Virus record (IMG/VR): IMGVR_UViG_2667527998_000010
Length of the DNA: 15,861 bases
Source of the DNA: a virus
Taxonomy: Duplodnaviria > Heunggongvirae > Uroviricota > Caudoviricetes
Strand: one strand, 5' to 3'
Below are positions 12,001 through 15,000 of the stretch, in pieces (position 1 is the stretch's first letter; every line of letters starts with the position of its first letter). A program made the position numbers.

Positions 12001-15000
12001 TGCGACCAGGCATCACTACCCGCAAAGATAATTACCTCTGTGTCTTTGTGTTTTATTCCGCGTGGCTGTTTTTTTACGTTCGGTGCCAGTTTCATTTTTT
12101 ACCCCTGAATACGTTAAGCATCTTTTTTATTTCCTGAATATTGGCGCGTGCTTTCTCCCTGCTGGTTGGTTTACTGCGGGGCGCTGCCTGTACCAGCGTG
12201 AAATCACGCCGGAATTGATAAACAGGCATCACGCAATCATATTCGTAACCTTCACGGCGGTAGGTGATGCGCCGTTCTGCCACGCCTTTAATCGTTACCA
12301 TGCCGCCGTACTGGTCGCGGTAAATATCACCGCGCGTAAATTTAGGGTGAGTGTTGCCACTGGCAGTTAAGCCAGAATATTTAAGTTTCATTATTTTTAT
12401 TCTCCGGTGTGTTGTTCTTTATATCTGTCGTGCAATAGATCTATTTCTTGCAGTTCCATTATTACAGGCTCAAGAAGCGTTATTAATGCCGTGGCAATTC
12501 TTGATTTTTGTTTGTCGCGTTCATTGTCGCCAAGTGTTTCAAGCCATATGCGCAATATTTCCAGCATGTTTTCACTGTGAGAAAGTGCAAGAAATGCGCG
12601 GTCTATTGTTTCGTGGTAAATATCACGCATATTAATCCCCGTCCGTCGTTTTTCTTAAAATAACCTCTGTCACGAAATCAGCATAATCGGCGGCGATATT
12701 CAGTACATCAAGCCCGTTGATTTATATTCTCTCGTGGAAAGTAAGAAAAAAGCCGCTCTAATAAGTTCTGGCATTGACGAAAGCGCATCAGCCGCATCAT
12801 CAGGAACGCCGGAAAATTCCTGTTTCAGGGAATTAAAACGATCATCACGCATAACCCCCCCCATTTTCACAATCGGCAACAAGAATATTTTTAGCGTCAT
12901 TCAGTGACCGCGTTGCGATGTATCGGATACATTCCAGGGCGAACTGTGTCCGGTCTTTCTGTTCTTCTCCCTGCGCAAGCTCTGCCGTGCATTCAATATC
13001 AATAAGCGCGTGCATCAGCGTAGTGAGTGCGGCGGCTGCTGCGTTCGGTGTGGTTTTATTGTGCATAGGTTTCCCCCTGACGAATACGGGCGGCGAATAC
13101 AGCAACACAACCGGACGGGCAACGGCTACGCGCTTCGCGTTCCGTCCAAGCGGTTACGTGGATGATTTGGGATTCTCCGGCACTCAGTGCCAGAAAACGC
13201 CACACAAAGGCCGTTTGTGTGTGTACAAGGTGTGGTATATGATTTACGGCAACCATAACGGCTCCTAGTTTACGTTGTTGGTTAGAAGCCCCGTTACTGC
13301 TCCTACAGTGCGGGGCTTTGCTTTTTGTGTTGATTGTGTGTAATGTGTCACTACACATAAATACATTACCTGAGGTGTAATTAACGTGTCAACACACAAA
13401 AACGAAAGGCGTGGTAATCCTCCGTTCCAGTTCCGTTTAGATCCTGACTTACGGGAAAAGATGGAAAAGGCACAACAACAGGACGGCGATGATTCTCTTG
13501 CTGCCTGGATAAAGCGAATAATCCGCAAAGAATTACAGCAACGCGGCATAGAACCCAAAGGATAAAAACTATCAGCGCCGTGGTGTGAGGTACTACGGCG
13601 CATTGCTTTACAGGCGCACACAATGACCAACGAAGAATCAACCGAAAAAACATCACCTGCACGAAAAAGACGACGCAGAAAGAAAGAGCATGAATCAGAA
13701 CGATTCGCGCCGTGTTCTTTTGCCCTTGAGAAGTACCTTAAAGAATACTCATCAAAGGAGAGAACTTCGCAGTTATGGCAACGCACTGAACCAGACTGAT
13801 TGCATTGCCCACCAGCCTGATAGCGGCTATCATCCCCGTGCTTATGTTTGGGATCACACACACAAACGGCGCAGCGGGTTATCTGTTCAGAAAGGCGGCT
13901 CCATTTCGGGGCCGCTTTTTTTATGCCTGAAAAACCCCAATTTTGTGGTTTTCCAGTTTCACCAGGGCGAACGAATCCCCGCCCACGTTCTGGCGTATAT
14001 TCAATCTTCATGGTTATAGCTCTGTGTTCAGATGATTGATGTGTGGCGGCTGCGTGCCGCCAGCGTGATTAATGAACTGCCTTGCAGCTATCCTTCCAGG
14101 CCAGAACCTCGGATAAAGACCAGCCAACGGAACGACCGCCAAGTTTACGACGTGATGGGAATTGTCCGGCCTTTTCCAGGCGGTAGCGGCATGAGCGGCT
14201 AAGGCCTGTTAGCTTTTCGCATTCTTTTTCACGTATAAACCGATCAGTGCTTAACACTATTGCCCCCTTTCGTTTCTTAAAGAGTTATTTCGTGTTCTAT
14301 TGCGTTGGGATGTGTCTGATTGTGTCAGGATGATTCAGAGTTGGCAAATGTTGAGGCCGTATGGTTTACAGAAAGAGGAATAATCAGGATAAAATCCTTT
14401 AAATTCATGTTAATACAAAGGCATAAAATATTGTTTCATGCCTTTTTTCTCGCTATTTAAAGAGTGATTCGCTAGTGTATAAAAAATCAGTAACACATTA
14501 AAAATCAGCTACTTATAAATCTGTACACTTTTTCACCTCTTGTTCGTAGTTGTTCCGCATTGTTGCTCATTGTTGCACGTTGTATCTGTTCGCATATCCA
14601 GTATGCGCATACTGAAAAAACACGAAAAAAATTATTTTCTTCTGGCTACTGGTAGCGTGGTTACGTTTTCATGTGTTCCCGCCAGTATCCCTAACCGCTC
14701 CGTCCACATATCCAGCGCATTGCGTTTAGCATCCAGATAACGGGAATGATTATAAACTCGCTGCATTCCTGGCATCTGGTGGCCTGTAAGCTGCTCCACG
14801 ACGTGAGGATCCACGCCTAAATCGTTCAGCATCGTTGTAAAGGTGCGCCGGATGTCATGTAGTGACCAGTGAGGGTGATTTAGCCTCCTGTGCGCTAATC
14901 TGCCGTACTGCGACACGCTTGTTTCCTGTTTCACTTCCCCCAGCAATAAGCCCGTGTGCCTGTTCTGCTCCACCAGCTGCGTGACGAACGGCAGTATTGC

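Follow-up and report, generated by a model that had tools for sequence, protein, structure and literature searches.

The DNA analysed here, a 15,861-nt stretch taken from IMG/VR record IMGVR_UViG_2667527998_000010 (the window, below), carries a run of eight G on its minus strand (GGGGGGGG, 12855–12862) at the junction of two small genes, orfA and orfB, which sit in the early regulatory and replication operon of a phage satellite. We consider it probable that this G8 run is part of the translation-initiation region of orfB, with orfB coupled to orfA, and that the junction is prone to slippage and tolerates it. On this reading, the Shine-Dalgarno (SD) sequence of orfB happens to be a long homopolymer that slips in replication, an uninterrupted run of at least seven G being for that reason a hot spot of replication slippage. 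Tract length would drift around eight in the population, and length modulo three would set the product pattern: two coupled proteins at G8 and G11, a fusion of ~144 amino acids (aa) at G7 and G10, and a longer orfA running across the orfB start at G6 and G9. Because orfB would retain its ATG and SD whatever the tract length, and the run codes for a flexible linker, all three frames appear to be tolerated; the junction would be frameshift-buffered rather than an ON/OFF switch, and a hot spot at which the two genes become joined and separated again and again.

Around the tract the minus strand reads ...GAT TGT GAA AAT GGG GGG GGT TAT GCG TGA..., with the run encoding a stretch of glycines at the orfA C terminus. 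As the original prediction for this site had it, the orfA stop codon (TGA, 12845–12847) lies three codons past the run, and orfA is well initiated at ATG 13066, which has an SD of GGGGG at 13073–13077 and a 6-nt spacer. The second open reading frame (ORF) is, as described there, long, being open through to TGA 12700–12702, but the statement that it has no start of its own was wrong: an in-frame ATG lies at 12852–12850, 2 nt past the run, and our list of ORFs also gives an in-frame ATG at 12900. Since orfB has this ATG together with a candidate SD, and stands alone in other islands and in distant relatives, the suggestion of one gene broken at the tract is not supported. A lone G8 is unremarkable by chance, with 0.54 expected per dinucleotide shuffle of the 15.9 kb and at least one in 60 of 200 shuffles, so that the feature becomes significant only through comparative data.

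Position and analogy make the run the likely SD of orfB. Its 5′ end lies 10 nt upstream of the orfB ATG, and in a second module, where orfB follows a different gene of 121 aa, the arrangement of G run, TAAAC and ATG places the 5′ end of the run 11 nt from the ATG; a distance of 10–11 nt is the normal SD position for the 5′ end of a run. At least seven other genes in the window have G-run SDs (G4–G7) in front of them (alpA, orfA, orfC, primase, orf92, portal and HNH), with spacers of 5–6 nt in each case except orf92, whose G5 run lies further upstream. A stop/start overlap and an SD-like sequence at a suitable distance inside the upstream ORF are both present, and from these we predict that orfB is a separate gene translationally coupled to orfA. 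Coupled overlapping genes, in which the SD lies within the upstream gene and the stop codon of that gene overlaps the next start, are familiar from phage and operon architecture, and the orfA–orfB pair resembles them in its ATGCGTGA overlap, in the purine-rich putative SD within the upstream 3′ end, and in sharing its design with the checked neighbouring junctions of related copies, where other annotated operon junctions show the same 8-nt ATG..TGA overlap and the upstream protein ends in ...HA before the stop. Unlike the SDs of such pairs, the one proposed here consists of a long, pure homopolymer and stands at an unusually short distance from the ATG (2-nt spacer), and the junction itself would be mutable as a result. 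In the G8 genomes of MBT-5 and Nissle 1917, the Prokaryotic Genome Annotation Pipeline (PGAP) calls two genes of 73 aa each, which share this 8-nt overlap. Distant orfB-like relatives begin at the same Met and are proteins on their own, and a distant orfA relative also stands alone, ending in ...EVGHA before its stop and lacking a poly-G or Gly run; these stand-alone homologues suggest that two genes are the ancestral layout.

Next, we simulated each length state and compared the products with natural sequences, which confirmed them. At G8 and G11, orfA ends in ...NGGG(G)YA and a stop, with orfB behind the 8-nt overlap, whereas at G7 and G10 the two ORFs form an in-frame fusion of 144–154 aa (...NGG(G)VMRDD...). 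At G6 and G9, orfA is seven codons longer and reads past the orfB start (...LCVMIVLIP and a stop), with orfB still separate. No simulated tract state removes the start of either reading frame, and as the orfB start is kept in all of them, no OFF state is evident. The earlier expectation that losing one G would fuse the frames into a protein of about 120 aa was accurate: removing it from the window gives 121 aa, or 144 aa where orfB is intact, and hundreds of E. coli genomes encode the fused product. A protein search returned 389 matches, some of whose sequences occur on more than 200 contigs; among the best 120 of the 389, 62 have a G7-type junction, 43 a G10-type junction and 10 an 'NGGGM' variant without the Val codon. 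The original prediction had named homologues with two separate genes, together with a uniform G8, as evidence against it; the outcome is mixed, as such homologues exist side by side with fused ones. PHROGs likewise holds a family that spans both halves (phrog_2512, 154 positions) alongside one family for each half on its own. RefSeq and PGAP annotation is inconsistent for this one locus, with G9 (AF39, L001 3332–3768) called a 'frameshifted' pseudogene, G7 and G10 one hypothetical protein, and G8 two; recognition of the tract resolves these discrepancies among one gene, two genes, pseudogene, and split and fused PHROGs families.

Tract lengths were counted with a search pattern of exact flanks (GATTGTGAAAAT...TTATGCGTGATGATCG) around a free gap, which needs 28 exact flanking bases. 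The 143 copies found in metagenomes and IMG/VR comprise 33 G7, 61 G8, 30 G9, 5 G10, 2 G11 and 12 interrupted runs; 53 of these are metagenome contigs (G7 10, G8 27, G9 12, G10 1, G11 0, interrupted 3) and 90 are IMG/VR contigs (G7 23, G8 34, G9 18, G10 4, G11 2, interrupted 9). Complete E. coli genomes gave 889 matching records, ~650 of them full-length (out of 5,426 genomes), with tracts from G6 to G11. An evenly spaced sample of 60 of these genomes contained 24 G7, 11 G8, 7 G9, one G6 and one G11, the remaining 16 carrying the second module; every O157:H7 genome in the sample is G7, each annotated as one protein, and G8 is annotated as two genes. Identity-band counts with synthetic G7–G10 queries roughly agree with this sample, and offer rough support only, as multi-copy genomes are counted twice and ~240 partial matches are included. 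Tract lengths form a single peak around 8, G7 and G9 being roughly equal in frequency, and no frame is preferred (G11 is not commoner than G10). Lengths can also differ within one genome: in NZ_AP018808.1 (E. coli E2865, H42 and H53), of two module copies, the one at 1.62 Mb has G7 and the one at 2.99 Mb has G9.

The second module, in which orfB follows the 121-aa gene, occurs in about a quarter of the matching E. coli genomes, and at this second junction the run upstream of orfB is G6 in 35 cases, G7 in 4, G8 in 3 and G10 in 2, a shorter modal run that is correspondingly more stable. We observed this module in E. coli JE86-ST05 and EcPF14 (L057 and L058, with G6 or G7) and in IMG/VR loci L157–L200, where the 121-aa gene lies between orfA and orfB. 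The variable G run here has the same three outcomes, namely overlap, early stop and fusion, and a 167-aa protein (P0137) looks like a fusion of the 121-aa gene with orfB.

Slipped-strand variation was one of the options that the original prediction gave for such tracts, and the range from G6 to G11 among relatives supports a slipped-strand hot spot here. In a set of 141 sequences with 448 nt of flank, representing 100 flank haplotypes, 8 of the 20 multi-member haplotypes contain more than one tract length, and one carries G6, G7, G8 and G9. Tract length differs in 34 of 84 identical-flank pairs (40%), and any flank divergence above 0 brings discordance to the random level of 68%; parsimony requires at least 57 length changes across the 141 sequences, compared with 71 ± 2.8 for shuffled labels. 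By these figures, a change in tract length takes no longer than the accumulation of a single substitution over ~450 sites of flank. In the neighbourhood, nine further runs (T6, A5, A4, G5, G4 and T4) are invariant in length, and one other G4 has a G3 truncation allele, in orfB. Taken together, these data support DNA slippage polymorphism at the tract, as judged from sequence comparison. Tract state is nonetheless stable within clones at the consensus level: the sampled O157:H7 genomes are all G7, and the Ec-042 T0 and T20 assemblies are both G9.

Long-read platforms, and some short-read ones, are prone to errors in homopolymers of at least eight, and an alternative explanation is that there is one true length and the apparent variation is sequencing or assembly error, as the flagging of the close relative AF39 (G9) as 'frameshifted' by PGAP and the disagreement between identical-flank pairs could also suggest. 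We regard this as very unlikely. Lengths other than G8 are present in Illumina/SPAdes contigs at 13–94x coverage, several flank haplotypes are fixed for G7, G8 or G9, whole clones are likewise consistent, two assemblies of one strain agree (Ec-042 T0/T20), and neighbouring runs of 4–6 nt show no such scatter. An error in the window itself, which had been proposed, is not supported either, since its G8 is the modal state with the usual 8-nt overlap and recurs in a Shigella flexneri chromosome (L003) that is 100% identical to the window over 6.2 kb; L003 differs by a 340-bp segment and is therefore a distinct assembly.

Both ORFs are under purifying selection, with ratios of non-synonymous to synonymous polymorphism (pN/pS) of 0.42 for orfA and 0.38 for orfB, and two alternative frames hold stops in every sequence examined for constraint. 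In an AlphaFold2 model of the fused form, with a predicted local distance difference test score of only 62, helical hairpins at residues 9–67 and 91–141 are connected by a segment of low confidence that includes the Gly run; weak as the model is, a Gly run placed in a disordered linker between hairpins would make fusion and fission structurally harmless. Profile searches of Pfam, NCBIfam and PDB with orfA, orfB and the fusion returned nothing usable, larger proteins with an orfB-like segment (P0132, 477 aa, and others) gave no Pfam domains, and a megablast of the region against the phage collection gave no match.

As these proteins are constrained and the tract stays pure, it is conceivable, though in our judgement unlikely, that the junction is a contingency (phase-variable) locus, at which selection maintains the pure run because the split, fused and extended forms, or the orfB dose via SD spacing and coupling, can be switched rapidly and reversibly, with a bet-hedging advantage, for example, against helper phages or the host. 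Contingency loci built on simple sequence repeats (SSRs) include the poly-G/C tracts of Campylobacter jejuni, Helicobacter pylori, Neisseria and Haemophilus, some of which split or fuse ORFs, as in Cj0031/Cj0032. The junction resembles them in having an uninterrupted coding run of at least seven G that is polymorphic in length among identical or near-identical strains and whose ±1 changes join or separate two ORFs; unlike them, it has no evident OFF state, the downstream ORF having an ATG and a putative SD, and its consensus length is stable within clones. To our knowledge, E. coli and Shigella, which are mismatch-repair proficient, are not known for SSR phase variation.

Poly-G tracts also occur in the receptor-binding genes of Campylobacter phages. 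Contingency loci have recently been reported in the genomes of coliphages, namely T2 agt and T4 rIIA (Gomez, Barrick & Waters preprint, PMC12633550). Like these phage loci, the tract is a homopolymer in a mobile viral element of enterobacteria that would generate frameshift diversity by polymerase slippage; unlike them, it lies in a satellite, at a gene junction, and doubles as a candidate SD, whereas the phage tracts switch a gene with a demonstrated selective phenotype. Further consistent with a contingency locus are the randomisation of the tract relative to its flanks, the constraint on both ORFs, the variable G run at the second, independent junction upstream of orfB, and the purity of the run, which is uninterrupted in ~92% of copies although synonymous polymorphism (pS) in the flanks is 0.17–0.26. 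This purity can, however, be explained by SD function together with sampling by exact flanks, and the absence of an evident OFF phase or of any state abolishing either frame's start, the unimodal length frequencies without frame preference, and the stability of the consensus state in clones all argue against selection for switching. We had also formulated the claim that selection keeps the run pure, on the grounds of fewer synonymous interruptions than pS predicts, and dropped it as unreliable given the exact-flank search.

It is doubtful that slipping among the three frames serves, in a true contingency locus, to fuse two small regulatory or replication-accessory proteins reversibly or to shift their stoichiometry. 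If it did, the locus would diversify the response of the island to helper phages or host within a clonal E. coli or Shigella population, and no SSR switch has been described before either in the species or in this class of mobile element; if a functional difference between the states exists, this would make it the first such locus in a phage satellite.

Several points weigh against our preferred reading of a slippage-prone, tolerated initiation region. The role of the run as SD is drawn from position and analogy, and as only TT separates the run from the ATG, its 3′ part is too close and only the 5′ G residues could act as SD. A pN/pS of ~0.4 shows that the proteins matter, and the fused and split forms could be functionally different. 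The near-neutrality of the three states, which the preferred reading implies, is suggested by a frequency distribution that clonal sampling could distort: the dominance of G7 in complete genomes comes largely from oversampling of Shiga toxin-producing E. coli and O157. The requirement for 28 exact flanking bases biases the samples toward close relatives. Part of the discordance among identical haplotypes could, in addition, be homopolymer sequencing or assembly error.

A further alternative is recoding from the G8 template, in which a +1 shift by a fraction of ribosomes on GGG GGG GGU, stimulated by the SD-like run, or a slip of RNA polymerase, would yield orfA plus the orfA–orfB fusion; we consider this highly improbable. 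On a run of G, tRNA-Gly can move forward by one base and still pair fully; in prfB an SD-like element just upstream of the shift site stimulates +1 shifting, and the fusion is viable in other genomes. ORF fusion by transcriptional slippage or programmed frameshifting is known from Shigella mxiE, IS3/IS1 orfA-orfB, dnaX and prfB, which share with this junction two overlapping ORFs that a one-base shift at a homopolymer fuses. Unlike it, those systems have A/T runs or slippery heptamers of fixed length, and a downstream ORF without an independent start. At the present site, the run is G rather than A/T and varies from 6 to 11, while programmed sites are length-conserved; no stop or hungry codon is found at the shift site; and the hairpin predicted between the G run and AAUUCCC downstream of it does not reach significance (local RNA fold z −1.63). 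As the second frame has its own start, recoding is not needed for its expression, and programmed +1 frameshifting is thus unlikely. Transcriptional slippage, which the original prediction had listed, is disfavoured by published work, since slippage insertions in homopolymers of E. coli transcriptomes were reported in A/T runs and not in G/C runs (PMC5574713).

The junction represents a widespread, hypermutable homopolymer, found in ~650 of 5,426 complete E. coli genomes, in enterobacterial satellites of organisms not thought to use SSR variation, and neither the tract nor orfA and orfB turned up in our literature searches. For gene evolution, it suggests that a homopolymer embedded in an SD, combined with an internal start, can create a frameshift-tolerant junction with recurrent gene fusion and fission. 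Experimental handles are available in E. coli Nissle 1917 (G8; NZ_CP022686.1, near 941,240) and O157:H7 (G7).

While G8 is the ordinary two-gene state, the actual lesion of the orfA–orfB pair in the window is a separate 1-nt deletion, GGG at 12713–12715 (minus strand) where relatives have GGGG, which truncates orfB. The GGG allele is shared with the Shigella flexneri chromosome L003 and with metagenome loci L031 and L056, and is hence a circulating allele rather than a private read error.

The coordinates of the junction and of its surroundings are given in Table 1. From its gene content, the island in the window is identified as a capsid-forming satellite of the phage-inducible chromosomal island (PICI) type adjoining phoQ. 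It has the PICI-type layout of integrase, AlpA, a primase/replication module and its own packaging and capsid genes within ~14 kb (Pfam and NCBIfam matches), the last set comprising TerS, TerL, portal, prohead protease, major capsid protein, head-completion protein and connectors, and an HNH protein is encoded as well; no tail or lysis genes were found among the island ORFs in the Pfam/NCBIfam matches and ORF listing. All island genes placed by Pfam or NCBIfam are on the minus strand. The roxA/phoQ attachment site and the gene order are those of the O157 Sakai prophage-like element Sp7 and also of a related island in O157:H7 PV15-279. An Rfam scan of 12000–14700 detected no RNA family.

Table 1. 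Position of the G8 junction, its two genes and neighbouring features in the window.
Feature	Coordinates	Strand	Remarks
phoQ	1–1461		
Major capsid gene	7846–9051	−	
P4-family primase/helicase	10347..12095	−	D5_N, DUF5906, Pox_D5; TIGR01613; replication gene ending the operon
DUF4222 gene	12092..12391	−	same operon
orfC	12397..12630	−	77 aa; phrog_2196; next operon gene; SD GGGG + 6 nt
Remnant of ancestral orfB 3′ end	12632..12699	−	out of frame; runs to ancestral TAA 12632–12634 just before orfC
orfB	12700..12852	−	50 aa here (truncated allele), 73–77 aa in relatives; phrog_24341; C-terminal half of phrog_2512
ATGCGTGA	12845..12852	−	orfB start codon overlapping orfA stop codon, 8 nt
orfA	12845..13066	−	73 aa; phrog_5146; N-terminal half of phrog_2512
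Icd-like small gene	13056..13256	−	directly upstream of orfA; 11-nt overlap with orfA start
AlpA-type regulator	14069..14257	−	Pfam
Tyrosine integrase, island end	14632..15861	−	Pfam

The major capsid gene contains a TGG-to-TGA nonsense codon at 8176–8178 (minus strand), at a position that is Trp in Sakai Sp7 ECs_1590 (...KNAVWVVNST...), and is divided by it into ORFs of 291 and 109 codons. This copy of the island may consequently be defective and unable to form capsids, and is probably decaying, as is often the case in Shigella. The 340-bp segment that is additional in L003 (6222–6563) corresponds to window positions ~9263–9285 and is bordered by a 23-bp direct repeat that is single in the window, indicating a deletion or insertion between short repeats around a 110-aa plus-strand ORF (9201–9533).

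Upstream of the Icd-like gene lies a 248-codon minus-strand ORF (13265–14011) of odd Cys/Arg/Ser-rich composition, which, compared by position and length only, occupies the place and has the approximate length of Sakai ECs_1576. Wholly inside it, on the plus strand, a 59-aa ORF (13386–13565) matches the Arc-like repressor family phrog_228, and in the relative AF39 the annotated ORF in this position is a 57-aa one on the plus strand.

Additionally, a second long G run in the window, G7 at 5316–5322 (minus strand), lies 5 nt upstream of the HNH-endonuclease ATG, where the head-tail connector gene is in its final codons. A query with this G7 had no exact match in complete E. coli genomes, and two aligned relatives have GGGGGTG. 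By this comparison the run appears to have arisen by a T-to-G substitution (Val to Gly) private to the lineage, which makes it uninformative as a control for the stability of G runs and would create a new potential slippage site.

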